DNA from: Isurus oxyrinchus
Lineage: Eukaryota
Direction of reading: 5' to 3'
Length of the DNA: 64,000 nt
Assembly: GCA_026770705.1 (NCBI GenBank)
Contig: JANJGN010000021.1
Location: 90,334,001-90,398,000 of the forward strand
The notes under the pieces are model-generated. The model ran no database searches. It was not told the DNA's origin and saw nothing but the letters and a program-made list of their open reading frames with translations. The position numbers were made by a program, and so were the translations under genes. Shown piece by piece: positions 688 through 57,700 of the stretch (positions are counted from its first letter, which is position 1; every line of letters starts with the position of its first letter).

Positions 688-714
688 AAATGGACCTGCA
701 TATGAAAGATACGG
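688..714 (+). CDS. 27-nt microexon, type I, (E)MDLHMKDT
   Basis: ttctcttacag|AAATGGACCTGCATATGAAAGATACGG|gtaaga; paralog at 19064 has the same length and splice sites. Confidence 0.85.
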
Positions 715-3700
715 GTAAGACATTTTCTATTGGGTTAAGTTCATGCATGTTGTTTTTTTTTGGCCCAAAATTCAATGTCCACACTAACTATAAAGCTCAC
801 TACAAAAGCAATTAATGGTTTTTAGGAATGGGAAACTATCGATGCAGTCATAATAATTAACTTAACTTGCTGAAAAATGCCTAGCATTGTTTTTCACTCA
901 GGTACCATTTCAGTGTTGACGTTGATAAAGTACCTAGCAAAGTAACCTTAATGGAGAAAACTGCATTTAGCACGTTGAAGGTTAGACGTATGAGCAGCTG
1001 ATATAATTGCTCATTTCACGTTCCTGTCCTAACATAAAACCCCACGCCCTCCACAACCACCCCCCTCGCCTCCACATACACATTCGTGCACACACGCACA
1101 TGTACCTTCCCATTTGTGCCAATCTTCATACAGCCTTCTTTGATTCAAAAATGGCAAAACCAGCACAAAATGGCGAAAGATAATCGCCAAAATGTTACTC
1201 ACGCCACCATTATTTTGCCGTTTGTCTTCAAAAGATGAACACAATCGTGAGACATAGCAATCGGAAATATTGTTAAAGAAGTCTGTACCATTCTTGGATT
1301 CAAGTTCCAGGAATCTAATATTAGCCGAGAGATACATACATTGCAGACCTTTGATCCATTCCTTCACCAATTTAATGATCACATTAATAGCACTGTCTGC
1401 AGCAAATTGATAAAAATATCTGTAATGCAAGAAAGCGCATACAAAAACGTGAATTTTTGTGAAGATTTGCTTTGCTTTACTTATGCTAAAGTAGCGCTTC
1501 ATATGAATTGGAATATGTTATGCTGTTGCTGATGAGAGCCGTTAACGTGCCCGTCCCTACTGCTGTGAATCGGCATCATGAATTTCTGAATCCATCTCGG
1601 TTTCCCGGCATAGGCTTCAGCAGAAAGGACGCTTTTGTAAAAAAATTATTACTTTCGATCTCAGTTTGTTTGGAAGAATCCAAACATTCCCTTAATTGAC
1701 AGGTAGGCTGCTTTTAAATGCATTAATATTCTTTGAATATATTTCAATCAGTTTGTTTGACCTACCTTAATTCCCATATTTGATCAGTGTTTTAACTTTT
1801 TCACATATCATTCATGTTAACTATCATACTAACATTTTACGGTGGCGCCTTGATCTATATGTCATTGTTTTTTTTTCTGAATGTTCACAACTGCCTGGTT
1901 CATAAGTAACTGCCAGTTAAATACAAAGCAACTCGTATTCATGTCCAAAAGTAAATATATAAAAAACGCTCCAATAAGACATTTCAAAACATATCTAAAC
2001 TAGAAACATCGGATTAAAGTTAAAAAAAAACTCCTACATTTTCAGAAATAGAAACACTGAAGAAACGACTGGACGAAAAGTTTTAGCGAAATATTAAATT
2101 ATTTACTGTTGTATGCGATTCATATGCAGTAAAGTTGTTGTTCACACAACTCAATTTCATGGTTTCCGGAGCCGGTGAGCGTGGGGGATGGGTGGCGGCT
2201 CCGGGGGAAGGAGGCGAGGTGCACTAATTGTCGCATTTGTCAGGCCTGGTGGAGGGCAGCGGGAGGAGATGGAGCTTGACACCCCGCCCCAATCAACGCT
2301 TGCTTCCTGCTTGTGCTTCCTCCCCAGCACTTACCAAGAGGACTCCGAACACACTTTCCCCACAATCCTCTGGTCTCACCTCCACTTCCCTTTGTGAGAT
2401 TATGAACAATTACCTGCTGATAAACTCCCGGCTGTGAACCTCTTTGGCCCGCACATCTACGAGGCAGGAATTCCATCCCTCTAGCCCCCACACCCCACCC
2501 CGTGCAAGCCCTCTGAGTGTTGGAGATTAGTTCCTCTCCGGGCAATTAACTTTCTTTGGACCGTTATATGGCTGTCGAGAGCCCAACTTTGAATGCTTTG
2601 CATTCCTCACTGAAACTGCCATGAGGCTTCCACGGCCAGAGTGCTGCCAGCCATTTAATTGTCAGGTAGCCATCGAGGGGCGGCCTGCAAACCAGAATAG
2701 GGAGGAATGTCCACCTCAGGTCCATTAGCTGTCCTCTCGCCTTTACATGGTTGCATAGAAATTGCAAATGAATATGCTGTGTGAACTTGACCCATATATT
2801 TTCGTGGAGGCATTGCTTGTGGTAATCCACCACAAATGTAAAATTTTCGCCTTGTTTTGTAGTCACCTCCTTGATGCTGACTCTCATTCTCCATGATTGC
2901 TGTTTTTTTGGAACTATTTGAACTATTCTCTGTCCCTATGAAGCTCTTCAAACAACCACTGCACACCTTCTAGTTCTTTTACATCACATGTTGAATTGTT
3001 GTTCTTTTTCCAGACAATTATTTGCTTTAAGCATCGTCTCCCTGAATAGCGCTGTCTCCATGATGTCATTTTGAATCCCGATATCCCTGATAGGCTCTCT
3101 CTCTGACTCTTCTATTTGGTGTAGAAATAGAAAAGCTGAGGAAGCGAGTAAAAGACACAGGTAAGGAACTTAACCCTTTGTGCTCCGAAACATGAAATCT
3201 ATATGTTTAATTTTCATTAACATAAAGTTGCTTTATGTTTCAATCAACATTATAAGTGTTATCTAGAGCAATGTAAAATATCTTCCTACACAGATTGATC
3301 AGCCTTAAGGATATGTTCGTTTCAGCAAATCCCAAGCTCTGCGGAAAATGAGAGTGCTGAGTACATCCAAGGAATGTACGCGACAGTTAATAGAAGCATT
3401 GACGACACAGCATGCCATCGGGCCCATCGAGCCCATGACTGTTATCCATGGAGCAATTCAATCATTCATTCTATTCTACTCACTCGCTTCATCATAGCCC
3501 TGCAGGTTTATTTCGTTCAAATGCCCTTCCATGTTTTATTTTTGTTTTCAAATCATTCACTGGTTCCTCTTTGCCAACCTGCTTGGCAGCGAATGCCAGG
3601 CCATTACCACTCGCTGTGTAAATTCAAAAGGAATCGTTCCTCGCAAAATTTGGAAGCGTTGTGAACATATAAAAGGTTGGAAACAATTTGGATAGTGAGG

Positions 3701-18700: not shown

Positions 18701-21700
18701 GCAGGAAGCTTGGTCATCGAGTTATACTTGCATGTTGGTTCATTATTCTTCAAGTTATTTCCAAATGCGTTTTGTAAAAGGAAGAAGTCCTTCCGATAAA
18801 TATTCAGCTGCAAGTGACTGTCCAGCCTATTCCAACGCTTATAACTAAAAGCATTAGTCAAAATGGTATACATTTCTGGCACGTGATGGCATCAGTGTCA
18901 TAGGAAATCACGGAGGAGAACTGGCACCGTCCATCTGACCTTCTGAAATTTGAAATTCAAACATAGGTAAAGCGCACATGCCGGCGTGATGTTGTTCTGT
19001 GTTTCCCGATTCGTTAAAGCGACGAACATCTGAATGTTCAAAGTTGAACATTTTGTTTTACAGAAACGGGCCTGTTTGAAAAAGATACACGTAAGTCAGT
19101 TTCCATTAGATTAAGTTCATGTATTTTTCCCCAAATCCGAATGACCACACTAACAACATGCCCTCATAATGATTAACTGAACGTGGTCGAATGCCATGTA
19201 TTTTTATTTTATCTCCAGTACCATATTCAGTGTTGCCGTGGATAAGCTGCCTAGCAAACTCTCGTATAACTGAGAAAGCAAAATATAACACGTTGAGGTT
19301 TAGCAGTATTAGCACGTGAGAACAATTTGGAGAGACTTCGTGTTAAACTGTCGATTGTTCCCTCTGCCTACTTCACTACTTTCATTCCATTTTTGCATTC
19401 AGGCTCTAACATACTGTTAGCAAAACTCCCTCCCCACACCCCGCCCCCTACCCGCAGCCTCCCTACCCACGCACGCACACACACACACACACACACGTAC
19501 ACACGTACCCTCCATACCCCCACCCTTGATTTACTTCTGGCCACAGTCTTCACCATTCCAAACAATTAAAAAAGGCGATATTTCCCTCGCATTGTAGCAC
19601 AAATCGGCGAGTCTCTTCTCAGACCATCTTAATTTCGTCCACTGAAGTCAAGAGATGAACACAACTGTGAGACCTATCGATTTGGAATACTGTTAAAGAG
19701 GTCCAAAACATCCTTCGATTCATCTGGCAGGACCCGAACATTGCCCAACAGATACTACATTGCTGGCCTTCATTTCATTCCCTTGCCAGCTTGGTGATTA
19801 AATTGATACAATTCGCAACGATTGAAATCGCATCCCAACAAGTGAAATGATGTCATGGTTTTCTTTGTTTTACATGTGCCTAAAGTCGCACCCTTGAAAT
19901 GAATTGTAAAATGTTATGCTGTTTCAGACCAGAGCACGAACCTGCCCATTCCTTTTGCTAGGGATTGGCAACATGTATTGTTGAATCCGTCTTCGGTGCC
20001 CGAATATAGCCTCGAACAGTTAGGCAACTTTTGTAAAGCATATAATTACTTTCGTGCTCAGTTTGTTTAGATGTATCCTAACATGTCCTTCAATAACAAT
20101 CCTACTGGTCTTTAATGTTTGAATGATCTATGAAGACATTCGTATCACATTGCTTGATATACCTTTATTCCCTCATTTGTTTAGCATTTTATTTTTCCTC
20201 AAATATAATTCACATTAAAAATCTTGTTAACGATGTTATGGTGGCACCTTGATCTGTACGTTACTTTTCTTTTTTCTTTCCGAACGTTCACCACTGTCTG
20301 GTTCATAAGTAATTTCCCATTAAAGACAAAGCAACAAATTTTCATGTCTACGTACAAACATAAAAAAAAACAGAGTCAGACAATTCAAAGCATAACTAAA
20401 CTAGGAACTTACGAACAAATTTGAGGCTTCGTTAATAAAAAGTTTTCTTTTTTTTAGAAATAGAAACATTGAAAAAACGCCTTGACGGAAAGGGTTAGCG
20501 GAATATTAAATGAGCTACTGTTGTATGTGATTCAGATGCACTAATTTTGTTGTTTTCTGTCGTATATTTGTCCGCATATTTCCAAACATTTTAAAGCACA
20601 ATTGTTTGATTTTTTTGACTGTTGCGTTAAAAAGGAATTACGTTTGGCATTCCATAAACTTACTAGTGGGAATTTAAGATAGAAAGTTATACGTCTGCAA
20701 GCTGAGGAAAATATTTTATATTTAAGCATTCACGCATGAAACAAATAACATTGGTGCTGTCAAAATATATTTCGGACATTTTCCGAAAGTTTTATAGAAC
20801 AATTGCAGTATTGTACAATATCGCTCGAGATATAGCATACAACATTAAGTTTTAGACATCTACCAGTTGCTGAGTTTAAAACAGATAATGCGATTACACA
20901 GCAATAAATATTTCGTAGTCTCACTGTTGCTTTGCTAATGCCATTTTTACCTTTTCAGCTAAAAGCGTGGACGATGAAAACTTGGGTAAACGTGCACGAT
21001 TGTTAATGGTTTAAGGGTCCGGGTGTGGGAAAATGCCGGGTTTTTTTTTCTCACTGAAAACACATCGAAGCAACATAAGGATTAATTGGTTCCACAAATA
21101 ATTTGAGACACCCTTATGATTGCGCGGCTGGGCAGACGATAAATGGCATTCACGCTGGTGGGTGTTTTTTTTTTATTTATCTCCGATGAATTGACCAGTG
21201 TGTAAGCACAGTGCAGTGGAGGGGAACAGTGTGAGAATTTTACGTGGGCGGAATTTTACGGATTTCTGAACGGCTCACGGCATTTTATGGCCCCGTTGCT
21301 GCCGCCTAAGTTTCCTCCCCAAGTGCAGGAAAAGTTGGTTATTTACTGAAGCCCCCGAAATGCTCTACAACTAATTTTAATGGAAATATAATGCTATTAG
21401 TTCCGCTTCCTTATAACCATTCTAAGAAACAGAAAATATTATTTCTTTCGAACAATATTTCTTTTTTCGCTCCTTTAGGCTCAAAAAACACCACTTAACT
21501 TGCGTACCTGACGTGTAGTCCTACAAGGACTAATAGATTACGAACGAAATGGAGGATCTTATATGACTTCCTATTATCATACCGGTACATGTGATCATTA
21601 TTTTCAACTTCTGCCTTCACGTTTAGGTATACGAGAGCTGCCAGTAGATGTGTTACTATGCAAAAAAAAAACAAAATACCTTCATTATATCTAACAACAC

Positions 21701-36700: not shown

Positions 36701-39700
36701 CCAGAGAAATATCTTAGTTCAAGGTTAGGGCGACGGAAAGAATCCTTCAGCCGAAGTACATCCTGATAGAAATTTGGATCAGAGGGTGCTGTGGCATATC
36801 TTAATGATAATAACATGTCCTTGTGTTCTTCAGATTTATTTCTGTAGATTTTGAAAGAGGAGGGGTTGGAAAGTTTAAAAAAAAACACTTTCTTGGAGAG
36901 GAACGACGATGATCCTTGGTTAATGAGCAGTTTTACAAGACGAATGCAGGAAGCAATTTGGCTTAATGTTGCCCAGCCATAGTCTGTTATTGATGGTTAA
37001 AGAACCGGCTCACTATATCAGTTTAAACCCTTTGTACCTGTGGCCTTGAAGACAGATGAGGGCGTATCAGGGGAAACAGCCAGTTGGTCAGGGAGTGATA
37101 GAGAGGGAAACAGAGAGTTGGGGAGATAGTTGAAGGGGCTAGGGCATCAAGTGTGCGTTTGTGCTTGAGGAAACTAACAGATGCGTTGGTGAACAGAAGG
37201 CTACAAACAACAGAGTTGGACTTTGGATGGTGTAGTTGTGATTGAAGTACCTTGTCGTTTTTGGTTACCGGGTGCATAAAGTTGAAGGTAGGTGTGGAAT
37301 GTGGAAAGATCTTGCAGATGCAGCGTGCAACAAGGGAGTGTTCAAGGATGGTGTTATCTATTATCGATTTGATGGAAACCGAAGATAAACTGAGAAGGCC
37401 AAGCCAAGTGAATGGCTTACACATAAATCTGGAATTTCCTTGTGGATGGAATGGGAAGATAAAAGGGAAAAGATATTCAAGCTCTGAGGGAACTTTGAGA
37501 CGTGCGGACACAGTCCATAGGGATGGAGCTTGAACTTTTTGAGGATGAAAATATGTTTGCTTCAAAGGCAGCAAACAGAAGCAGTGAAGATATAATCTTG
37601 GAAACCGCACGACATAAATTTCGATTGTAACCTTTTTTCCAATAATTTGAGCAAAAAATATCATTCTTAGTTTTGACCAATAGATCGCTTAAAGTTCTTT
37701 ATTTTTACCATGTTTTTATTCAATGTACTCAGTGCCGGAACATATTTTATTATTGCAAATTGATAGCTTTTTTTCTGGTGCTTTTAATTAATTCCTTCAA
37801 TTCAGACCGAATTCTGCGTAAAAACAAAACAGGCGAGTATACTAAATTTAGTACTTGGACAAACTTCAATATTTAATACTTTGACTACATTATCGTGCCC
37901 GTGAAACAATTCAGTTCTGCTTCATTCCTAGAAATGGTACGATAACTTGTGAAACATAAGCTGTGCATTCACATAAAGAGATAAAATATTTTAAAGAGAA
38001 ATTTTAAGTGAAAATAAAGACTCGTGTGACAGTAATAGAGATGCCAAGAAACTAACCGGGAATGGGTGCAATTTATGATTCATTAGCTCATAAACTAAAG
38101 TAGTTTGCAGGGAATTGACAGAATGAAATCCGATTTTGTCCCTACGTACCTGTGCAATTTGGGGCAGTAATTCGACTCCGGTGTAAAAAGGAAGTTCTGC
38201 TTGATTCTGCCGCTCTTATTGCGAGACCAAACAGGTTAGAATAGACTGAAAAATCCCATCCCTTTGCTTTGGTTTTGTTTTTAAATCTTAGATTATTATT
38301 TTACTCAAATTGCGATTGCCACTGTGGCAGAGCATGTGCATTACTTCAGTTCCAGTATAAAATGATCTTTTTTAAAGTAATCACTTTAAAAGAGCATATC
38401 ATTGTGAGACAAACTGATTTGGTTCTTCAGTATTTCTTTTTGCTTCCTACTTTCGGGTTGGAAATGGAGATCTTGTTTCTAGAAAGGATATATCGTGCAG
38501 CATAAATTCTTGAAACAGTATATCATTGAGAGAGACCCCAGCAAGTAAGCCAAGCCAATATTTGGAACAAATGTCACTTGCATGATGTTACTCGGACTTT
38601 GGTATTCTGGTGCAAAGAATGTCCCGCCGCAAAACTTGCAACATATCCAAATAGCAGTAGGCAACATGTTTGTTGACTTTTATTGATGTATTCCTGCTGC
38701 ATTAAAGCTATTTCTGTAGCTGGATTCGAAACGTAAATTTGGCGTAATTCAAGATATATATGGAGTCAATAATTATTCAAATGGTCACGATCATATCAGT
38801 TGATGAATATATCCGCTGCCCAATATCAGTTTAATTGCATTCAACTGAAGTAACTAGCAGATATGGCCTATAAAGGGCGCTGTTCCGCACATTGTACTAC
38901 CGGCCTAGTTTAATTGCGATCCTTTGATCAATACAGCATTATGTCTCGTCTTCCTGATTGAAGTCGGACCAGTTCTTCTAATCCATATTCGTCAATTCTT
39001 CGCATGCTCATGGAAGTATGCATTGCTTCTGTTGCACCTATTAGATCAATTTCTTATATAACGCTTTGCCCCAATTTCAGTACATAAACTGAAATTAAGA
39101 ACAAAAGTAAGACTTAAACGTGAATCCTGAACTTGGTTTTAAGTTGCACTTATGCAATAATTTGGCTTTTTTCATTTTTAGAATTAGACCAAGCCCATGA
39201 AGCTCTGCAGGGTGCAGGTAAGAAACAGAATTTTTTATTAACCTGAATACATGTTTGTTAAGAAAAATACAGTGGAAACAAATCCGCCCCCCTCCACCGC
39301 ACAAAGGTTTCAGTGCCCAGGCAAATTAATAGTCATAATCTTGAGGAATAGTAAACTGGTTTCTGTAGAAAGTACATTTTTTGACCACGTCATATCAATG
39401 AACTTGCCATTTCTGTCTGGAGCAATAACGTCGTCCATTGGACCAGTCATATGTTCTCGGAAGCTCTGCATTGCATGCAATGGACTGAATTTCACGCTCC
39501 ATGATCGGCAAGTTTCCCCGCTTTAGGAGGGGTATTGCGGGACAGGATGCCATCGGATGCCATTTAGACGTCATCACGCCAGTTTCCAATATTATGCCAT
39601 GCGGGCGAGTCAAAATATCGGAAACCCGATCGCGTTATTTAAGCATCAATTTAAAATACGATCAGCTAATCAACTCCGCATCCCGCCTAAATAATATGGC

Positions 39701-42700
39701 CAGAAAGCAAAAATATGCCTTCAGGGCGAGATTTGCAAAAGGTGGGAAATCTATTTGTTTAGGGGTAAGCTTGCTTGGGCCTTCTTTAAAACTGCAGCTG
39801 AGACCAGAGTCTCAGCTTTCCAATTCAAAGTCTATTGAGTGCAGGGTTCGCTCATTTGAGCAGACAGAGGGACCTTGTCTTTATGTTCCATGCGGAGAAT
39901 TCTCCTCTGATTCAGAGGCTCTTCTGAAGATTTTTGTCCTGTTCATAACACTGGATGAGAGTTAATAAGTTTCAGAGATAGATGAGCATAGTTATCTCAG
40001 TCGGAGCCACAACCTTCACGCTAGAGGTTAGATAGAAATAGGGGAGATGAGGGGTGGGATGAGAGAAAGAAGGGAACACAGGAGGCTGAGGATGTTGTGG
40101 TTCCTCAGGAAGGGGCGTGAGCAACTCCAGACCCCAAGGATCAGCAAGAACCATGAAAACCTCTGCGGAGTTGAAAATGAACTTATCCTGCCCGAAATGC
40201 ATACAGGCAGAGATGTAGCTACCAGCAATTGATTTCATTATGTCATTGAACATTTTATGGCTCTGGGGCCTCCTCACCACGTTACAGCTGTTGACCTTGT
40301 CGGACACCTCGTCCCATAAAGCACGAGTCTGCCTGAGATTCCTTCTCTTCCCAGCAGTCGACGTAACCTGGTCATGGCCACCATGTATTGCATGCATGCC
40401 GTGCATCAACGTTGGCCTCACTGAATCTTGAGACAGCTTTAGCCCTTCTGGAATGCCTTCCCCCTCGTTTGGATATTTCATGGTAATATGTAATGAATGT
40501 ACAACTTCTCAACGCAAATCAGCGGGAGATTTATTAAAACATATAATCGCCACCACTTGTTACATTTGCTGCGATTGGACAAGATTAGGTCAAATTTAAG
40601 GTACAAGTAGTAAATGCAGGGGAATGCACAGCAGGCCTGGCAGCATCTGTGGAGATAGGAACGGAATTAGCATTTGGGCTCTATATGACTTCTTCATTGT
40701 TGAAGAGAAGATGTGCAGCAAGGTGAGCAAAAGGGAATATCGGAGATAGGTATGAGTTTAGGATAGATTTCACAAAAATGTCATGAACACAATTCACCGG
40801 AGTGGTAATGATAGTGATCAAGAGTAGGGCAGGTGTTAACAGCTGCATTAAGGTAGCAGAATGTGTTAATCGCTGAACAAGGGTCATTCCCTCTCAAAGG
40901 ACAACATAACAAGTTACAAATTGGTCTTGTGTGTGGAGTGTGTTGAGAAAAAAAGTGTCAACGTGGAGGACAAAGATCATGGTCTGAATCTGATGAATTC
41001 ATTTTAAATGCAGAAGACGGCCAAGGGCCTTATCAGAAGATAGTTTTCTTTGGGGGCTGGGGCAACAGCACGTCATTTTCCAATTAGGCTCTTTACAAAC
41101 TTCTGAACTTTACATTGAGTTTAACAATTTCACAGGCTTAATCTGTCCTGTATTTCGATATTCAATTCACAACGCACTCCCCCCACAGGGCCAAACTAAA
41201 CTTCTTCCCATGTTTTGGTTTCAGGGGGCCCTGACCTATGTTTTACTATTAACACGTTCTGCTATCTGACCTTTATGCCAAAATTAAAACCTGTTGTTTT
41301 TCACAATGCCATTACCAGTACATTTGCCTTGTGCCAAGGACATCTGTGTCAAATCCCTTGAGATCCGAAAAAAATGTTGTTCTTTTTTATTCCATGTGTT
41401 TCAACCCCTCTCTTCAACAGTATAAGGCCCATTACATTTGTACGCTTCTTGATTCTGTTCCTCTCTCTCCACCGATGCTGTCAGGCATGCTGAGTTTTTC
41501 CAGCATTTGAGTGTTTTCTTTCTCTCAGATTTCCAGCATCCGCTGTGTATTATGTGTATTACTTTTATTTTACTTAAAATTTGTCCTGGTTTACCTGACC
41601 AAATTCAAAGATGAACCAATCTTCCCTGTTTAGTAGATGCACATGAGTGATCATCTGATGGGTCTCCTGACGGTCAAGTGGCAGGGGGCCCTTTAAAATG
41701 CTGGTCATTACCTTGTTCCAGGTAGCTGCAGCTTCCGAGAATGGACATGCCGCCGTCCAGTAATCATTGCGAGAGATGAGGGCCCGTGAACCAACCTTGC
41801 CACTCATTCACGGCAATTAGCGTATTGTCGGGTGCACACGACGGTAGGCCCGGAAGGAGGAATGTTCTCGACTTTCGGAAGCGACCGCATTATTCAGCCC
41901 CGTGCATTTTTTGCTTCAATCATTCCATCTGCCTCGGTTGGAACTCTGAAAATAGTTGTCTGATTTTTGTTGAATTTCAATGTTTTGTAATGACGATACG
42001 AATCTGCAATTACAGCAAAAAAACTGAAGGAGAAAGACTCAAGTATGTTACCGTCTCCCAAATTCTCATTTTAGTTTGTATTTTTTGTCAGATTTCAGTG
42101 CATTATGTTACCTCTGTTATGTGAGGATTGATTTTCCTAACCTGAAATCTTAAATTATAAACTTCATAATATCGATTTCTTTATCCATACTGTTTAAAAT
42201 TATTATCTTTAGATTTGTTGGATCTTCATAAAGCTGATGGTGAGTCGCACTGACAAAAAGTCAGAAAGAATAGAACAAAATATTCAATGCTGGCTGGGTC
42301 GCAAAACAGGCATTATGGCATAGAAGGAGAATACAGCAGATGCTGGAATAAAAACAAAAAATGCTGGAAAAAACTCAGCAGGTCTGACAGCATAAATGGA
42401 GTGAAAAACACCGTCAACGAATATCCAAATATCAGAATCTGCCTTTAACGAAAACTGCAAATTTCCCTGATGCAATTTTTTTCATTTGTGATAAAAGTGA
42501 GAATTATTGATCACTTTGTCCGCTAACTTAGGTGTTTGCATTCATTCTTCATGGATGTTGACTTGAGATGAAATGATATATTTTGGCTCAAAATTTGAAC
42601 ACACCAATTAAATTTTATCTAGACATTTCTATATTTTCAGAAATGTGTTGATCTCATTCATCATATTTTTTCCACGAAATGACTGAATGTATACAGCAAA

Positions 42701-45700
42701 TACCAAAACTATAGAAAATCAATTTTGCCTTTTTTTTTACATGATGGAAATTGAAATTACTGCCTGCACCTTATAAAAATTCCAGAGCGTGAACTTTTAT
42801 CTCTGAATTATGAATGTAAATTTCAGGAGAAGAAGGAAGTATGAATACAGCAAGAAAGCCAAAATCCATGCTTATTAGCGGCTTAGAATTAAATTCCCCC
42901 CCGATCGCATTGTACTATCACTCCTGTCGCAGGAATAATAATAGTTTGGAATTTTGAAACAATCTCTCACCTGCGCTTTTAGTTACAGTTTAAATATGCT
43001 TAATTGAAGGAAGGAGGTCTCATTAACTGGACCATCCCTTATGTACTTATCCATACACAAAGGCTCTAACTGTATTAGGAACAGTGGACACCTCAACAGG
43101 TGAGGCAGCATCTGTGGAAAGAACGGGATTCTCTCTACAGATGTTGCTCACCTGCTAAGTATTTCGAGCATTTGTTTTCTTCTTATTTCAGTTTTTCAGC
43201 ATCTGCAATATTCCATTACTTTGTAACAGTGATAGTTGTGTGTTAGGGTATGTTTTACGACATCTAACCATGCAAATATATGCTTATTAAATGTCAAAAT
43301 ATTGGGTCCAGTTAGTTTCTTTGTGCACTTGCTGATGAATCAAATTTGTAAGAAGAAACAACAACAACATAAAATAGGTAGTTAGCTACTATCCTTTCAA
43401 TTATAGTGGAAGGCGACAAAATGAAATAACGTCTATATTGTTTGGGTATGATTGCGCTAGTATGCTGCAAGGTCTGTGGAAGAATGAAGTGGAGATATGG
43501 ACCCTCTCAAACACCTACAAAAAACATAAACACGCCGTTGCCACTTTCAGCAAATTGGTTAAGGTCGGAAGTATTTTGTCAGTTGGATGAAGGTTTGGGC
43601 ATTCTATAAAAATGCTTGGTTAAATGCACAAGAATGATGATCCTTTAATTGTTCCAAGGATTGTGGTAATATTGACAGATTTCGAAATTTTTTAAAAAAA
43701 ACAACTGCTCATATTATGCATTCTATCAAATGTTATATCTAAAAACGGTGGAAATTCAATTTAGGTTGGCTAGAACATTACCCGTGGTTGCACTGTTGCA
43801 TTATACTCAGATAGTATGGACAGGTGATTCCATCCAACAGCTGTTCGGTTTTCAGAGTAAGAGTCTGTCCCTGCTGTCGGCAAAAACATCCTCAAGAGGC
43901 TTTCATTTCCTCTGGTTTTATGGAGAAGAAGAAGCATTCTGCGGTTTACAATAAAGAATAAACGACAGGAGACTCAATGATTGTCAGAGTTTGAAATGGT
44001 CCAAATACTGGCTGCAGGCATCAATACAAGAGGGCGATTAAAAATAGCCAAAGTGAGGATGAAAGCAAATTTATCAGATCTAGCTGTTATAACTTAAGAC
44101 AGAATTGGAACAACAATATTAAGCGAACAGCTCACAGGAAGTCCAGTGAACTGCAGTCGCTGCATCTGGTGCAACTCGATGTATAATTGTGTGGTGAACT
44201 GCCCAATATGGAGTGGGTGAATCCTTCAGTTACACATTATTATCTCGATTCACTAAGTAGTGGTTAACGCAACGTAAACTATTTCACATTACTATTTTTG
44301 TTTAAGTTTGTAATGATAACATAATGAAGTCAGAACATTAAGTGGCAGATGGTTATCTAAGTCCATGTAAATTACCTGTATAAAGCCAATTTATGAGTTA
44401 TTCGAGCTGGTGAGTAATCACGCAATTCAAAAGGGTGCCTTGACATGGAACATGCTCACAATTTCTCAGTAATTCACTGGGCTGTGTTTTGCACAATCAG
44501 ACTATTTTACAATCTCTTGAAAAGCAACTGTTGGTTCTCAATAGACTATTAGAATATAAACGTTACCATGAGATCCGTGAATTCCAAGTGTTATTAGGAG
44601 CAGGGTTTGTATTTAATCTGTATTAAATTAAGGTACTATGCTGTGTTTGTGAAACGTAAATAATATAACTAAATGTGCAGAACGGCTAAAAAATGCTGGA
44701 CAAAATATACTTGAAATAATAACAAAAGTTCCATATTTTCAGCTAATGTAGCCCTTGTGATACTGCATTTTAATGTGCAGAGGCACTTTTGAGTTCCATG
44801 CACTTTAATTATTTCGTTTCTTTATAACTCCTTCAGAAGATCGCATGAAGCAGTCAAAAACTGGTAAGCATCCGATAATACTTTTGTACAAATAATACAA
44901 AAGAAGCGGTGTCAATCATGAAAACTATGGAAATTTCCGAAATAATGCCTGAAAGTGAATGGAATTTCCCAGCTGATCTGGCAGTATCTCTAAAGATACT
45001 TTAACAAATGTTGCACTCGATTATGTTCCTTGGCCGACGGCAGTGTTAGGTTAACATTGTTCCGTTAAATTCTCCACTGCATCTTCTTTCTCCATTTTGA
45101 GTGGATTCAGTGCGCTTATTTAATTTCAACATTAACGATAAAAATAAGAATTTCAATGCAACCCATGATGGCAACCTCAGGAGTTTTTTTAGAGTTTCTG
45201 ATTGATTGTTTTTTGTCCTGCAATCTCTCTTGTCATGATGTCTGATATTCGCCATTTATTTATATTTTCCAGAATATTTATTGTTCTATTTTATTTTTGA
45301 CATTTAAAAACATACCATCCATTACTAGCTTTGCTTGTCCACTTGTGTTCCTTATGCATGGTGAAATGTGCAAAATGATTTTCTGAACCCACTCTACATG
45401 ATAATGCAAAGGTGTCTTTAGGTGTCCTTTCAGCTGCCATTATCAGAAGGGAGATTGCGAATTCCAATGGAAAAAAAAGGAAAACAAATCTCATGAACCT
45501 TGGTTAATTCATCTATCTGGCATATAAACATATTAATTAGGAGCAGGAGTAGGTCATTCGGCCCTGCATGCTCGGTCTCCCATTCAATGAGTTCATGGTT
45601 GATCTTCCTGTGCTCAACTCTATTTTTCTTCTTACACCCTATGCACTTTGACCACCTTGTCAATCAAAATTCATATAATTCATCTTGAGAGTATTCAATA

Positions 45701-48700
45701 GTTATGCCTCCACCACTTTCAGAGGAAAGGAATTCCACACACTCACGACCATCTGAGAGAGGAGAATAAAACTCCTCCTCTCTTTTTTAAATGAGAATTC
45801 ATTTAAAAGACCTGTCTCCTAATTTAAGTATCTCCCACAAGGGGTAACATTATTTCAGCATCCACTCTGTCAAGTGCTTTCAAGAGCTAATATGTATCAA
45901 TACGTTCTCCTCACCTTCTTCTATGCTCCAATGGAGGCAGGCCCAATGTCTAAAATTTCCTCGTAGGATAACACCCGCAGTCCAGGAATCAGTCGAATGA
46001 ACATGTTCTGAGCCGCTTCTCCTTTAATTATGGTCTTTCTTAAATAAGGACACCAAAACTCTAGGCAGTATTGTAGATGTGGTCTTACCAATACCCCGTG
46101 CAACTGTAGCAAAGCATCCCTAATTCTATTTTCCATTCTCTGTGCAAGAAAAAGCGACATTGCAGTTGCCTTAATATCCACTTGCTGTACGTGCATATGT
46201 GCCAGTTCACCAAAATCCCTCTTCACCGCCAGGTTCTGCAATCTCTGCCCATTTAAGTAATATGCTGCTGCTTTTTTGAATTCTTCCATTCGAACTGGAC
46301 AAATTCACGTTTTCCCAGATTCTACTCCATCTGTTTTGTTTTGCTCACTCATGTTAGCTATCCATGTCCCACTGAATGTTCCATAACTCCTCTTGAAAAC
46401 TTACTTGCCTACCTACCTTTCTGTAAGGAGAAAATCTAGCTGCCAGACATTCGATCGCATATGCCAAGTCATTACGTAAATTGTAAATAATTGAGGCCCC
46501 AGCACCAATCCCCGTGTCAATCCATGCAATCCTCTATCCATGCTAACATGCCACCCCTTCACCTTGAGTTCTTATTTTGCCGAGTAAATTTTGGTGTGGC
46601 ACTTTGTGCTTCTGCAAATCTAAATACTGCACATCCAGATGTTCCCCTTTATCCACGTTGCTTGTTACATTCTGAAAGAACTCTAATGCATAGGTCGAAC
46701 TCGATTGTCCATTCACAAACCATGTTGACTCAGCCTGATTGCTTGGAGATTTTCTAATTGTTCTGCTATAACACCTTTAATAATAGATTCCAGCATTTAC
46801 CCTCTGGCAGGTTTTATAGGCTTACTGGCTTGTGGCTTCCCATTTTCAGTGTCATTCCTATTTTGAACAGAGGTGTGGCATTCACTATTTTTCAATCTGA
46901 TCTTTCCTGAACCTGAGGAATTTTGTAAAATTGAAACCAACACATTTAAGATCTCACCAGTTACCTTTCTGTAAGAAGCTATGATGCGAACCATCAGTAC
47001 CTGGGTTCCTTTCACCTTTAATTTCTACTTATTCCACTGGATCCCTTTCCTGGGTGATTGTAATTATTTTCAGCTGCTCCCTGTTTTTTTGGAGCAGCAC
47101 ACCTACTTTGGGGTCCTCTTTTCACACGCTTTCTAGCCGCTCCAGAATCCCCTGGATGCTGTTGGATCGCATTCTTCTAGGTACAACTGACTGCATTCAT
47201 TCACAATCACTTCGAGGTGCTACTGCCTGCCTCCATGTGCTCTTGTCTCCCTCTCGAAATATTAGCACATGCATATTGAGATTAGGGTATTGATCTGTCC
47301 AAATGAGGTCGCATTTCACTCCTGGGGAGAACAAAATTAGGACGCTTGGCAGTGGGCTGTGCCTGCAGTAAATTTCAGTCTTAAGATCCCGACACCTCGA
47401 ACTTACTTAGGCTCCTAAGCACTTGGGGCTAGCTGGAGCCCCAGCATTGGCCACCCGATTGCAAATTGTCTAAGGTGGGACACCGTCCGGTGATAAGGGC
47501 GGAAGCCCCTCCATAAAGTAACTCACGCTGCATTCAGTGTTAAATTACTTTATGGCAGCTGTCCGGATAGTTGGCGGGCTGCACCACACCAGACCTCACA
47601 CCCCCTTCGCCAGTCCCCGCTACCCAACACTCTCAAAAGAAAAAGAAAGGCAGGCTTTTAGTGGGGTACAGGGAAGAACTGCGACCCCAGCGCCTCATTA
47701 AATCCAGCCCATTGAGCGAGTTATGATTTTTTATTCTTCAGCACCCATTGGGATGAATAATAAAATGGATCACCTACCAAAATTTGGAGAAAAGTATAAT
47801 AAAAGAAAATTAGCAGATGCTTGGAATTGATTTTTTTTCTTTCAAATCTCAATGCGTTATTCCAGCAAAACACTTAGAGATTGTGTTCTTTATTTTGTTA
47901 GTGGAATGGCAGTTCTAATTTTTTTAAGGGCACATATAGCGATCATGGTAATATGACTTTCAGGCATAGGAAAACCGATGATTTATTTCATTTCAGAATT
48001 AGAACAATTAGAAGCAATTCGGAAAGATATTGGTAAGCAGCTTGCTTTTTTATATTCTTCCACTTTATGTTTCATTGATTACATCCCCTATACAAACGTG
48101 CGGTTCACCGCAAATAAAGAAAGAGACAGAAAATACAGAACAAAAACTTGAATATATAAATGGCAGATTTCCCAATCATCATCACGTATTTGCAGGCAGA
48201 CACGTAGATTGATATAAAGATGGAGACATGCTGGCAATATTTACCTCAATTTTTGCAATTTATAGGAATGACTTGGGTGAAGGGACACAAGAATGGTTGC
48301 TAAATATGCTGGCGACACAAATATATTAAAGTAATGTAAATTGTGAAGAGGACACAAGGAGGCTACACAGGCACTTAGGCAAGTTAAGTGAGTGGGCAGC
48401 AATCAGGTAAATAAAGCATGATACGAGAAAACCTGAGAGATTACAGAGTTCTGAGATGCAGAGGGATCTGGGTGCCCTAATGCATGAATCACAAAGGGCT
48501 AGTGTGCAGCTACAGCAAATTATTAGGAAAGCTAATTGAATATTCTCATTGTTGTGAGTGGAATTGATTACAAACCTAGGGAGGTTATGCTTCAGCTTTC
48601 AAGGCACTGATGAGAGCACATCTGGAACATTGTGTGCTGCATTGGTCGCCTTATTTAAAGAAATATACAAACACGTTAGAAACAGTTTAGAAAAGGTTCA

Positions 48701-51700: not shown

Positions 51701-54700
51701 CACAACAATCTATTGTATGCAATATAAATGAATTGTTTGAATTTGAGTTTGCAGCATAGGTAATTTTCAGTGAGCAGGCCACTTCATGAGGAGTCTGCAA
51801 TTTGATTTTTCGAAGTAGTAGCCTTCAATGCAGAGACAATAGCCGAGATGTTTGCATCGTTGCTATTCACAAATTCATCCTGGGACGCTACCTGTAATGA
51901 TTTGATGATGAGTAATTCAGTAGGTATTGAAAAAAGACGTTTGAACTTTTAACGCACTTAAATTTCAAATTCCTAGTCACTTGTTGTAGCAAGGTGAATG
52001 AATATGAATATCCTGGCATGTCAATTCTATGTTGTGCTTTGATCTGCAGAGATAATGCTGCATACCAAGGATTTAGGTAAACTGTTTAAGTGTGTTTTGT
52101 TTCTTGTTGTCGCATTATTTAGCATTTACCATTGCTGAAACCTGCATTATCAAAAACCCGGTCTTTCCATTTGATCAGATGCTGAACTGGACTAATCATA
52201 TAAAAATAGTGGCTACAAGAGCAGGTCAGAGGCAAACAATCGTGTAGCGATTAAGTCACCTCCTGACTCCCCACAGCCTGTGCACAATTTGCAAGGCACA
52301 CGTCAGGTATATGATGGAATTCCCTTCACTTGCCTAGATGAGGATAACTCCAAAACATTTAAAATATCGACACCATCCAGGACAAAGTAGCCTGCTTGAT
52401 TGGCACCCTGTCCAAAAACATTCACTGACTCCACTACAAAGTGCAGTGGCAGCAGTCTATACCATCTACAAAGTGCACTGCAAGAAAACGCTTAGGGTCC
52501 TTAGACAGCACCTTCCAAAAGCACCAGCGCTACCATAGAGAAGTGCAAGGGCATTAGACACACAGTGACACCACCACTTCGAATTTCCCCTCCAACCCAT
52601 TCAACATCTTGCATGGAAACATATCGCCGTTCCTTCACTGTTACTGGATCAAAATCCTGGAACTCCCTCCCTAAGAGACCTGTGCGTGTACCCACCCCAC
52701 AGGGCCTGCAACAGCTCAAGAAGGCAGGTCACCACTATCTTCTAAAGTGCAATTAGGGATGGACAATAAAAACTGGCATAGCTAGCGAGGCTCACACCCC
52801 ATGAATTACTCCAAAATGTAGAAAGAAAAACGATAACAAAGCATAGGAATTAAATAAATGCAATTTAAAATCGGAATAAAGGTAAAAGGACATATGATGA
52901 ACCATGGCTTCGAATGCATGTGAGATAGAGTCTGGCACATTCTTATCCAATGACCAGGACATAAATTGTGATCCGTCTGACAAATTTCATTTAAATTAAC
53001 GCACTTTCAAAGAAGCAAACTTACCTAAGATACTTTGTGTGTTCGAAAACACGTTATGCACAAATGGACAGATTTGAGCTTTGAAGCATCGAGCTTTAGA
53101 GCGGAAAATTCGTTTGCCAACATATGTGTGGACAAAATGGTCTCGACCAGTGAAATCATGGCCCCATTTTGCTGCGCTGAAGCTTCAGGGAGCCTTATTA
53201 GCCACAGAATATCATATGGCAATAAGGGGAAAATTGTGCTGGCATTTAAAATTCAAAAAAGCAATAAAAAGTACCGTTTGCATCTCCATCTTTGTTGTGA
53301 CTACAGCAAAAAAACACACTGAAATAAGCAATAAGTATAACACTGACACGTGAGACGGGAACTAAAGATGCAGTTTGAATTGTTTAAACCTTTATATTAG
53401 AATAGATTCTAAATGCAGTACATCTGACAGTATTTTCAATTTTCACACCTTGCACATACATTATTTCCCTGTTCTTCCCAAGAAGGTGAATAACTTTAAA
53501 CTTCCCTACATTATACACCATCTTCAGTTGTGTTGCTTGTTGATTATCCTTTGCAGATATCTTTAAATCCTCTTTTTGCCCTCCTCATAGCTTACATCCA
53601 AAAGAACCTTCCATTATCGACAAATTTAACATACATTATCCTTGGCCTCTTCGGTTGTCATAAATATGTGTTTTAAATCACAGAGTTCAGAACACTGATT
53701 ATTGCATTACCCCACTACTTATAGTCTGCTAATTATAATATACTCGTTTTCCATACTCACTGATTGGGTTACGTTAATAAATCCTCTATCAGTTATCTAA
53801 TATATTGCCTCCGACACCAGTCGCACTTAAATTGAATATTAAGCTTTTTGTGTGGTACTATATCAAATACATTTGCAAATCAAAGTAAACCACATCTATC
53901 GGTTTCCTCTTTATCTACAGTATCAGGTATACCGTCAACAAATCCAAGAAATTTGTGGTGAACTTGCCCCTCGAAAAGAAAATGTCTATCTTGTTTGCAT
54001 GTATTATATTCTAAGTGCATTTTCAGGGATTCCTGATTATGATATTGCTGTACTTTATCGATTATTGGTGTCAGACACGCTGGATTGTAGTTTCTAGTTA
54101 TCAATCTCCTTCCTGTCTTGCACAGCGATGTTATATGTGCTAACTTCTTATCCAAGGGAATGGTTCCAGAATTAAGGAAGTTTAGGAAATCGTACCGATT
54201 GCATCCAGTCCCTCTGCAGCTATCACTTTTGAAACTGCAGAACTACTCCATCTGTTGCTGGAGATGTTTCAGCTTTTAGTTCGTTATCATTCTAGAATAA
54301 ATTTTATTTACTGATACTAATTAACGTAAGTTCCTCACTTTTATTTTGTTTTCCTCTATCTCTGGTACCTTTTTCCCTTGTACATATTTGGAGAAGTATG
54401 ACAGTCATATTTTTGTTATATTCCTGATTATGCCAATGTTTTATTTTTCATTTCTTCATCTATATTGTGGCCGCACATTGCTGGTTTATGAAATGCACTC
54501 AATCTTCACACGTGCTTCAAATTAGATTTCACGTTATTCGCCTATCCTGATCTAATATTAATCTTTGAACAACCAAGCATAGCTCTCTCTGGCTGAGATT
54601 CTTCATTTATTTTGTGTGTTTGTAATTCATTACATTGCAGATAATCATCCTGATATCTTTATTTAAAAGTTTCACATCGTTTGCTCACCGTCTTACAGTT

Positions 54701-57700
54701 TTATCTAAAAAGAAAAATCATCCTTAGTCAGATTTCCACTCATACCTATAGAATTGGGTTGCTTTCTTTCTAAGTAAATGCTGTTGAATGAGACGGAATT
54801 TGCCTCTATGAATCTTAATGTGGGAATCATCTGTATAATCATCGCCTTTTCCACCCAGATGTCCCACCTGTTTACCGTAATATTATGAATTACCCTGTCT
54901 CGTTGCATATTTCTAGATCACAAGTAGCATAAAGCCTACTTAGCTTCACAACTTGCTGCTCCAGGAACCTATCCAGATTGTATTCCAGGAAATAATCTCC
55001 CAGTCTATCTTTGCCAGTTTGATGTTTGCACTGCATAAGGGGTTTTATGTCCCTCACAATTATTTCATTGCTTCTGTTATAATCTCATTTTGTTGCCTGT
55101 GCAATGATCTGCACAATAGTCTATCTATTCGCAGAAGCCTGTAAATTAAATTCCCCGTTGCTTTCAAACATGCTGAATGAATTACCTCATCTGCTGAACC
55201 AAGATCCGTCCTCATTCTTCACTTACGCCACCATTTATTATGAGGACTACTGCACCTTTTATTCCATTTTTTTGACTTTTGGAAATGTCATTTACCCTAG
55301 AATATTGATTTCGCAACATCTGCCACCTTGTAACCTTGTCTGTAGTATAGGGTAGATCTAAACCATTCAAGACTTTTGTGCTGCTAATTCACCTGTCTTA
55401 CTCTGAATTGTTTGTGCATTGAGATATTTTTTAAGCATGCGTCTTTATCATTAATACAGTTTAACCTTTACGTTCACAGTCATATACTGCTCCCCTCTGC
55501 TTCACTTTCGAGCTTGCTAAATTGCACTATAGCGTCAACATTTGCCTTGAATTCATTGAATCTCATTTCCCCTAACCACTCTCCCACTTTTTGGTTCGAG
55601 CACTACTCACAGCCTAGATATACAATTCGCAAGGCCAATGCTCTCAATGCCACTTAATTGCATTGCATCCTCAAAAAACAACCCTATCTTTCCCAGGAAA
55701 TTGAAGTAAAACCTTTACAGCACTCACTATTGTTTGAGCCACACATTTAATCCTCACATCTCTACAAAACATTTCCAAGAGGTACGTGTTTCTGTTAAGA
55801 ATCCATAGATTATAATCTTTGCGATTCTACGTGTTAATTAGTACCCAAACCCTCAAGTTTCTATCAGCAAAATTCCCTCCCTGTTTCTAAATAAATGTTT
55901 GGTTCCACATGACGAACGACAAATAGATACAATTCTTCCCACTCCAAATTCATCCCCAGTTAGGAGGGAATGTGGCATGAAGCAAAATATTCAGAAAATC
56001 CGTCTCTGCTGTCGAGAATGGTTTCTGTCCACATGCCTATTGCGTCCGCTCTCACCAGCGCATTCATTTTCACTCTCCTCACTTGAATTATGAGAATACA
56101 TCAGAAGGTGACTTTTAAAAAAAATAGATAAGACCCTTACAGGAAAAACATTCATTCTGCGGTTTTCACTGAGTCAGCTGTGCAGATAGAAACTCTGAAT
56201 CATTGATCCTTTTGCTGTACTTCTAAATAATGCTTGGGATAGCGTCATTAAAACTGCTTTATAGAGGCAAGAAAATTATACCTGATAACTCAGCGTTTGT
56301 AGTGCAATCATATCTTCATTTGTACCTTCACCTTGTTAGCTTCTATATGTTTATGATTTGCAGAACTTGGAAAGCTGCGTGAAAAAATTAGTAAGTAAAA
56401 ATATGCAATATAGAGTATAGAACTCAGTTTCCAACAGCAGTGCAGGTGTAGCTGAACCAAACGGAAGACAGCAATTGGCGACAAATGCAGGCCTATTCAG
56501 GAACATACATATATCTTCTTTGGATTATATTTGGTCCAATGCTGTAATGACATCTGTGACTGGGTGGCACTGCCAGGTCACAAATTTAGTACCGGTGAGC
56601 ATGGTATTCCTGTGTAAGTGTCGATTGATAGGATAGTTCATGATAACTTTCATATTTTTGCTGATGATGGAGAATAGACTGATGGGGTGATGATATGTCT
56701 GTTTGAATGTGCTTTGAGTGCTTTTTTTTACGCAAGTGTTTTAACTTTACTGGGGCAGTTTGGCTAGCGGTGTGGCTCGTTATGGAGGACATGCCTCGGT
56801 ACTTCTGTCAGATTGTACCACTAGAATTGGTCAAGGCCCATAGCCTTTTCAGGATACAAATCATTCAGCAATTTGTTGCATTAACGCAGTGTACTTAATC
56901 AACTGAAGAAGTGCATAGTTGATGCTTGGAAATTCAGGCTAAGTTCGAGATTGTCGCCTATTCTGGCTGAAGAAGTTGCTACGTTTTACGCTCCTCTTTT
57001 TCGCAGATGTGCTGGGCTACGCCATCATTGAGGATGGGCATTATTGGCAATTCCTTCTTCTTCTTTCCTTAGTTGTTTAACTGTCCACCGCTATTCATGA
57101 CTGGATGTGACATGGAAGTATAGCCTGGATCATATATCTTGCCAGTGGGATCACTTGGTGCTTTCTGACTCCTCCTCCTTCCCGTTACTTGGCATGCAAT
57201 TAGTCATGTGGTGTAGCTTGAGCAGAATGACTCCTCAATTTTAGAAATAATTTATGCTATTCGTGGCTTGCTCTCCAGCAATCTTCACTGAACCAGGACT
57301 GATGGTAATGGTCGAGTGAAGGAGATACCGGACAATGAGGTTAAAGATTATATCTGAAGACAGTTCTACTACAGTGGATGCTGCATGAATGCCCAGTTTT
57401 GAGGTGCCCTATTTGCTCTATAATTAAGCAATTTGCAAGTTTGTAGTGCCAACCAACACAATGGAGGTTACATTTAATGTGTAAAAGGGACATCTTCTGC
57501 ACAAGGACTGTATGATTGTCAATGCCAAAAATACTGTGAAGGGCAGATGCAAGGACAATGGGTTGATTTTTCTGGACGACGTCAAGAGTCTTAGTTCCTT
57601 TTTTTGCTCCTCTCTGCCTAGACAAGGCCAGATCTACCAGTAAAGCCCTGCAGGACCACATCAGCTTGATCAGTAGTAGTATTGCTGACCCATCCGTGAT

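Follow-up and report, generated by a model that had tools for sequence, protein, structure and literature searches.

The underlying design of the locus described here, small heptad-encoding exons together with a B30.2 domain, is already known from BG and butyrophilin genes. In the portions available of one account, BG genes carry 13-36 exons of 21 (sometimes 24) nucleotides (nt), each encoding one heptad and located behind IgV and transmembrane exons (PMC4046983), and a partial text on butyrophilins reports them across jawed vertebrates, including cartilaginous fishes, with a variable number of heptads (PMC12841164). For TRIM20, the sections available describe ligand binding as enabled by dimerization (PMC4455283). 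The present subject is a series of micro-exons in a 64,000-nt stretch of the Isurus oxyrinchus genome (4.98 Gb), hereafter the window (contig C21:90,334,001-90,398,000, + strand); coordinates that are negative or >64,000 are relative to it. The original prediction for this DNA held that exons of 9 and 12 amino acids (aa) form 21-residue pairs in heptad register, and that the pair is the unit of duplication and selection. It was right on pairing, and wrong on a fixed length of 21 and on the unit of duplication.

The micro-exon array and its modules

The window constitutes 64 kb inside a + strand array that comprises at least 328 micro-exons, all of phase 1, spans ~1.57 Mb and runs hundreds of kb past the outermost exons of the window (688-56390) in both directions. 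We consider it probable that the window is the middle of an array of tandem paralogues, whose micro-exons encode a long, segmented, parallel two-stranded coiled coil that ends in a B30.2 domain in the intact members. The micro-exons are real, as judged from their exon-by-exon match to a protein of the catshark Scyliorhinus canicula (XP_038671249.1, P0001), which aligns colinearly with 40 of the 46 exons of the terminal unit at 78% identity, boundaries included. Further homologues occur in Chiloscyllium, Hemiscyllium, Rhincodon, Cetorhinus, Narcine, Leucoraja and Callorhinchus, and the terminal B30.2 domain is 93% identical to that of a basking-shark model. No chondrichthyan model was found that covers the window's own unit, the best being the catshark protein, which in the window's half-unit matches 17 of 61 exons with 56% identity, a similarity that we read as paralogy.

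Exons were assigned to the classes A (27 nt, 9 aa), X (27 nt), B (36 nt, 12 aa) and D (36 nt), along with a short form of A, termed a (18 nt, 6 aa), in a 1.83-Mb region enclosing the window. On the plus strand, 13,660 candidates had a length of 27 or 36 nt; profiles of the classes, trained on the exons and set at thresholds that let through three minus-strand candidates per length, kept 312 of them (119 A, 68 X, 110 B and 15 D). Once overlaps were removed 310 remained, 296 of them located from -552 to +1,015 kb, and the total rises to 328 with 32 elements of 18 nt, found among 35 B-B introns in a single amplified block; linker exons of 15-24 nt exist and are left out of this count. A first scan, of 864 kb, had returned 137 plus-strand versus 15 minus-strand candidates. 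The exons of the window are as follows.

688..714, + strand: A-type 27-nt exon, 9 aa, with Leu at position 4 (heptad position a) and Lys-Asp at d-e
2046..2081, + strand: 36-nt B1 exon copy with its donor lost (TT for GT), probably skipped
3125..3160, + strand: B-type 36-nt exon, the B2 copy of a five-copy three-exon unit
19064..19090, + strand: A-type 27-nt exon
20458..20493, + strand: B-type 36-nt exon, B1, with a GTTAGC donor
20959..20985, + strand: 27-nt exon candidate, unpaired and linker-like, with a weak score (16 against a threshold of 14.5)
22218..22244, + strand: A-type 27-nt exon
22837..22872, + strand: B-type 36-nt exon
34007..34033, + strand: A-type 27-nt exon with a GC donor, copy 1 of a 3.8-kb pair duplication
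35462..35497, + strand: B-type 36-nt exon, copy 1 of the same duplication
37806..37832, + strand: A-type 27-nt exon with a GC donor, copy 2 of the duplication
39182..39217, + strand: B-type 36-nt exon, copy 2, identical to the 35462 copy at 35/36 nt
42016..42042, + strand: A-type 27-nt exon, first half of a 9+9 = 18-aa module
42213..42239, + strand: X-type 27-nt exon with His at position 6, second half of that 18-aa module
44837..44863, + strand: A-type 27-nt exon
47997..48032, + strand: D-type 36-nt exon of a conserved subclass, with Ile at position 8 instead of 9
52050..52076, + strand: A-type 27-nt exon, first half of a 9+9 = 18-aa module
56364..56390, + strand: X-type 27-nt exon, the last confident exon before a 48-kb gap

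The nine 27-nt phase-1 exons originally proposed (688, 19064, 20959, 22218, 34007, 37806, 42016, 44837 and 52050) are all bounded by AG and GT or GC and have open frames, and their fourth residues read L,L,V,L,L,L,L,M,L as had been stated. The pattern described for the 36-nt exons also holds, with hydrophobic residues at position 2 in all six, at position 5 in four (the two others being the duplicated copies, which both have Ala there) and at position 9 in five; the Ile displaced by one position in the sixth (47997) identifies a member of the D subclass. Heptad register is indeed kept in the 9+12 pairs. The series of 21-residue pairs is not continuous within the window, being interrupted by two 18-aa modules (42016+42213 and 52050+56364), by the unpaired 20959 and by the donor-dead exon at 2046-2081.

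Across all 328 exons, A and non-A exons alternate with a frequency of 0.795, compared with 0.494 +/- 0.027 after shuffling (none of 10,000 shuffles reaches it), which bears out the proposal that a two-exon module, unlike the one-heptad exons of BG genes, is the repeating unit. Its length is not fixed at 21 residues. Among 144 A-anchored modules, 97 are of 18 or 21 aa: 54 measure 18 aa (31 of 6+12 and 23 of 9+9) and 43 measure 21 aa (34 A+B and 9 A+D), the others being of 9 aa (14 modules), 30 aa (11), 33 aa (7) or other lengths (15). The 18-residue unit corresponds to 7+7+4, or two heptads and one stutter, and the part of a survey of coiled-coil periodicities that is available gives 18/5 as accessible and insertions of 1, 2, 5 or 6 residues as demanding (PMC4786415). 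Neither exon alone works for register, as had been recognized, and two module lengths are allowed.

A hydrophobic period of 3.5 residues is produced by the first ten paired exons taken in order, a result reached by 0.17% of 20,000 shuffles of exon order; when these five pairs are joined, the hydrophobic positions are 4 and 0 modulo 7. When 16 window exons are read in order, leaving out 20959 and the dead copy at 2046, none of 20,000 shuffles reaches the observed period. Within helical segments the best period is 3.50-3.54, with stutters and linkers present. Among the 15 D exons, 13 have Ile at position 8, 14 are followed by an A exon, and 7 are preceded by A-X-A; the window's unit ends with this arrangement, which is seen again in the catshark protein.

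Several other candidates in the window were discarded or considered doubtful. Those of 39 nt at 35363 and 39081 are separated from the next exon by only 60 nt, and those at 25131, 23304, 23979 and 52277 lie in or beside dispersed repeats or fit no class. A degenerate dispersed repeat of ~2.6 kb with an A-rich 3′ end occupies 23850-26460 and is heavily covered by repeat-derived contigs in four runs; relatives of it lie near 10.4-10.95, 52.2-52.8 and 62.1-63.0 kb, and a degenerate (TAA)n microsatellite is present at 5521-5588.

The predicted product

The residues of the B exons suggest a parallel dimer. Among 109 such exons, position a is Ile in 66 and position d is Leu in 87, a combination that favours dimers, and the charges at g-e′ attract each other in 71 and repel in 3. 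An A exon would span heptad positions e-f-g-a-b-c-d-e-f, with the partner exon beginning at g; Lys is found at d in 73 of 112 A exons. Modules of A+B or A+D would thus comprise three heptads (21 aa), and those of A+X or a+B would comprise 18 aa with one stutter. Both lengths are predicted to keep the hydrophobic seam continuous, and a lone exon of 9 or 12 aa would break it. Since all micro-exons are symmetric, any one of them can be copied or skipped without a frameshift, and it may be selection on the protein, rather than the copying process, that favours the 18- or 21-residue outcome.

An AlphaFold2 single-sequence model of P0001 consists of long helices joined by short low-confidence linkers, with a mean predicted local distance difference test (pLDDT) score of 55, a predicted template modelling (pTM) score of 0.26 and the B30.2 domain not folded; helix breaks in this catshark protein coincide with short Gly/Pro/Ser-rich linker exons. 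A query of the ESM Atlas with P0001 returned clusters of long coiled-coil + SPRY proteins (0.93 and 0.91) and no structure match above a template modelling (TM) score of 0.3 by query. At least 1,644 aa are encoded by U1, the unit that holds the window, 2,250 aa by U1 and the following unit U2 together, and 954 aa by the terminal unit U3. With a coiled-coil rise of 0.1485 nm per residue, these minimum lengths correspond to rods of about 240, 330 and 140 nm, respectively. By analogy with TRIM20 (PMC4455283) and the BG zipper protein (PMC4046983), as far as the available parts of these sources go, such a rod may serve as a cytosolic dimeric spacer or tether that displays two B30.2 domains far from its anchor, and its role would most likely be in innate immune recognition or cytoskeletal attachment.

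The 1.83-Mb region yielded no match to a RING/B-box profile made from 12 TRIM N-termini, and the family proteins contain none. It also yielded no match to a butyrophilin V-set profile, built from 15 segments (Pfam V-set was present in 8/8 source proteins checked), and no tblastn match to the Ig domains of a butyrophilin; the genome-wide V-set search, in which 150 of 3319 candidates were scored, is uninformative for the locus. No Ig domain was detected in 11 family proteins, nor in P0001. A scan of six gaps revealed nothing resembling a transmembrane exon. Outside B30.2, the maximum hydropathy over 19 residues is at most 1.52 in 10/10 family proteins, compared with 2.88 in a butyrophilin.

Over 29 hand-paired exons of U2 and U3, the ratio of non-synonymous to synonymous substitution rates (dN/dS) is 0.31, a value that belongs to no single branch. 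In one presumed-RNA run (X8), a depth-2 contig shows a GT..AG intron spliced out ahead of the terminal B30.2 exon; it begins at a short internal exon with an ATG (L159:7660-7718 to 8264; +1,013.7 kb) that is not a micro-exon. Such a splice form would yield a B30.2-only isoform, with a start as in the 175-aa basking-shark model P0011. Contigs from presumed-RNA runs, four for each region, cover neither the window exons at 18500-38400 nor the last two micro-exons before the terminal B30.2, and no RNA data set is listed for 33800-39700, blanks that count neither way; no transcript was observed in which micro-exons of this genome are spliced to each other. A 34-letter exon pattern has a single matching place, and in a first homologue search with the B30.2 domain of the upstream paralogue U0, 0 of 103 candidates matched.

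A number of observations weigh against the proposed B30.2-ended dimeric rod. A exons show no such g-e′ signal (14 attractive and 19 repulsive, n=112), and in D exons it is reversed (1 attractive and 9 repulsive, n=15); the splice junction also partly dictates the Glu at position 1. Of the modules, 47/144 are of neither 18 nor 21 aa, a figure raised in part by linker exons outside the count and by exons that were missed. Purifying selection is not seen among A exons in the five-copy unit (2 synonymous and 9 non-synonymous changes), nor in the A pair 34007/37806, which shows 0 synonymous and 3 non-synonymous changes. No start exon was identified, and a signal peptide could still lie further upstream. 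Finally, the nearest downstream B30.2 exon (+494 kb) is decayed, so the window's own product may lack this domain; its presence there depends on read-through past two decayed B30.2 exons.

Alternative accounts of the array

The larger layout of the locus bears on how many genes it contains.

-611,772 to -611,255 (L139), + strand: intact B30.2 exon of the upstream paralogue U0
-552,519, + strand: first exon of U1
-452,481 to -394,138, + strand: 32 tandem 36+18-nt units
+493,893-494,976, + strand: decayed B30.2 exon
+556,803-557,484, + strand: decayed B30.2 exon
+1,014,264-1,014,781 (L159), + strand: intact terminal B30.2 exon

The intact B30.2 exons match Pfam SPRY. Counting 27/36-nt exons, U1 contains 135, U2 62, the small unit U2b 2 and U3 97. 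From the decay of the two internal B30.2 exons we take the array to be a series of tandem paralogues, which might be read through as a single gene. Under this last possibility, which we regard as unlikely yet the most serious competitor, the duplicates lost their internal B30.2 exons and U1-U3 are spliced into one protein of at least 3,200 aa with a single terminal B30.2. Read-through would keep the frame, since every exon is phase 1 and on the same strand; the internal B30.2 exons are full of stops, whereas the U2 micro-exons keep splice sites and open frames; no B30.2 remnant was found from -611 to +494 kb; and scanning six gaps for a leader exon gave one weak plus-strand candidate versus one minus-strand control, and thus no convincing leader. 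However, exon-free gaps of 48-73 kb separate the units, and U2 begins anew with exons like those of the N-terminal portion of U0 and U3 (28 colinear exons, 70% identical, are common to U2 and the end of U3). U2b, which precedes the second decayed B30.2, has a stop-containing exon and a dead donor, and annotated homologues are short, the catshark protein having 945 aa (from the equivalent of +766 kb) and Narcine models 531-597 aa without B30.2. A fuller version of the single-gene account, somewhat less likely again, envisages a 1.57-Mb transcription unit with more than 330 micro-exons, derived from tandem duplicates that shed internal B30.2 exons, encoding a rod of at least 3,200 aa (~0.5 micrometre) with one terminal B30.2; a two-exon code would keep only 21-aa and 18-aa words, and exon gain, loss or alternative use would tune rod length and twist.

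It is improbable that U1 is a decaying or neutrally amplifying pseudogene with repeats that stem from recent tandem duplication only. Such an origin would fit the lack of a B30.2 exon directly after U1, the 15 damaged exon-like calls within it, the neutral or faster evolution of the A exons of recent duplicates, and the heavy recent amplification at -452..-394 kb. Against it, AG/GT and open frames are retained in 135 U1 exons, and the damaged calls are all free of internal stops; several of these are length variants or overlaps rather than lesions. The B exons of recent window duplicates show an excess of synonymous changes (7 versus 4 non-synonymous among B1 copies, p=0.003; 5 versus 5 among B2 copies, p=0.048), and an AG-18nt-GT element is kept in all 32 introns of the recent array. 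The 36+18-nt units of that array (L095-L100, L041) fall into three subtypes and have introns rich in simple repeats, and the acceptors of their 18-nt elements are A-rich and weak. An earlier reading of this block as a B-only exon run at -452 kb was rejected after the 18-nt elements had been found. A further block, at +119 to +185 kb, consists of three tandem copies with 24- and 27-nt exons of other types; a broken acceptor is present in one copy.

Slightly more doubtful still is the strict form of the original prediction, in which duplication, splicing and selection all act on the 9+12 pair and an unbroken 21-residue repeat results. The 43 modules of 21 aa agree with it, but they are outnumbered by those of 18 aa, whose conservation in the catshark protein already contradicts the strict rule. 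Duplication within the window gives a divided answer. The 3.8-kb duplication at ~32.7-39.6 kb did copy one A+B pair, whereas a five-copy duplication of ~9.3 kb, extending from -44 to +20.5 kb, copied three exons, B2-A-B1 (12+9+12 = 33 aa). Paralogous copies of exon 688 lie at -18124, -8801 and 19064, and a donor-dead copy at -32238. No A-like element is present in the ~1-kb B1-B2 introns of the five-copy unit, so that co-inclusion of its exons gives 33 aa. The donor loss in the internal B1 at 2046 would restore 21 residues in this three-exon unit; the loss in the internal A at -32238 instead worsens register, and the purifying selection on B1 copies indicates that they are seemingly translated in some isoform. 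We also rejected the idea that the GTTAGC donor is a weak one that evolved for the skipping of B1, because this donor is found as well in the terminal B1 copy, which is paired.

Skipping of exons as pairs, which the same account anticipates, finds no counterpart among annotated isoforms. In 18 comparisons across five homologous genes, 13 distinct internal differences were recorded, of 6, 7, 8, 8, 9, 9, 9, 9, 9, 11, 12, 16 and 23 aa, none of them 18 or 21, the models differing by single exons; as these isoforms are annotated gene models, they are only moderate evidence on skipping. We infer that copying and skipping act on single symmetric exons, and that register looks like an outcome of selection.

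That the exons form the cytoplasmic tail of a BG/butyrophilin-type membrane protein with Ig and transmembrane exons upstream is very improbable, for although small heptad exons precede B30.2 in the same layout (PMC4046983, in the part available), the best solved-structure match of the B30.2 domain is BTN3A1 (E 9e-23) and a large B30.2 cluster surrounds the locus on C21, no IgV match came from the 1.83-Mb region, no transmembrane-like exon from the six scanned gaps and neither kind of segment from the scanned family proteins, an RRM gene lies ~100 kb upstream of the first micro-exon of U0, and the B30.2 clade is separate from the butyrophilins.

This RRM-containing gene (Pfam RRM_1, with a CCHC-like exon; L122:5667-9579, -784 to -780 kb), which we take to be RBM4-like, bounds the cluster upstream. 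The bulk of the 150 scored B30.2 matches fall at ~82-118 Mb of C21, many in dense tandem arrays. Five close B30.2 paralogues are spaced 0.8-1.6 Mb apart at 2.7-7.5 Mb of contig C34 (L178-L180), and the two that were sampled both have upstream micro-exons of the array's classes.

Comparison with known systems

The nearest relatives of the array are chondrichthyan gene models that carry stand-in names, such as the catshark 'zinc-binding protein A33-like' (XP_038671249.1) and the 'golgin A6-like' proteins of Narcine (XP_069775418-28), with XP_038672306-10, XP_042191566-8 (Callorhinchus) and XP_078422387.1 (Cetorhinus). They share its exon peptides and their order and, where present, the B30.2 clade, and they have no RING or Ig domain; they differ in extent, with 175-945 aa covering at most the terminal 250 kb. 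In a tree rooted at the midpoint, the B30.2 domains of U0, U3, two C34 loci and nine family proteins form a clade of their own (100/100) apart from TRIM and BTN domains (13 of 45 rows), and every named member is from a cartilaginous fish. This distinct clade, together with A-, B-, X- and D-type peptides in a shared order, places the array in one chondrichthyan coiled-coil + B30.2 family, which sits inside a large B30.2 cluster and in which neither RING nor Ig was found; annotation holds its fragments under misleading names. A literature search, with most subscription journals outside it, found no paper on this family.

Very long coiled coils combined with B30.2 also occur in teleosts, including a catfish protein (KAK3511214.1) and salmon proteins annotated as 'DDB_G0290503-like' (XP_045550228-31). 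Their B30.2 domains cluster together (96/95) outside the shark clade, and the salmonid proteins start with a signal-peptide-like stretch. In the catfish protein an L..KE.E(I/L/V)..L motif recurs at a 21-residue spacing and resembles the shark A+B module, a likeness that suggests either convergence or deep homology. The mammalian enterophilins reportedly also consist of a soluble long heptad rod, or extended leucine zipper, and a B30.2 domain with no Ig or RING, and are said to be far shorter. Enterophilin-1 has been linked to sorting nexin 1, as given in a table row and reference listing (PMC13749957).

With TRIM20/pyrin, TRIM5 and TRIM39, as described in the available sections of PMC4455283, the proposed product would share a dimeric helical scaffold, two B30.2 domains and avidity for oligomeric ligands. 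Those proteins are built with a B-box, RING or another N-terminal domain, and an antiparallel scaffold that is short (~170 Å); of these domains none was found here, and the residue pattern of the array suggests instead a parallel rod of hundreds of nm. With no RING/B-box match in the 1.83-Mb region or in the family proteins, the array does not qualify as a TRIM.

In its proposed working the array resembles a BG or butyrophilin tail. A C-terminal B30.2 as in butyrophilins is intact in U0 and U3 and decayed after U2 and U2b. The array is not a member of either group by its Ig, transmembrane and exon-length features: its exons, more than 300 in number, are mainly of 27, 36 or 18 nt, lengths of which none is a multiple of a heptad, the searches revealed neither Ig nor transmembrane exons, and exons of 21 or 24 nt, the BG sizes, occur mostly as linkers. 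The array thus offers a countable case of exon boundaries meeting coiled-coil geometry, in which every exon preserves the reading frame and none alone preserves heptad register, and two thirds of the modules fall at two lengths that coiled coils tolerate. These lengths make it testable whether register is enforced by splicing, through paired inclusion, or by selection only.

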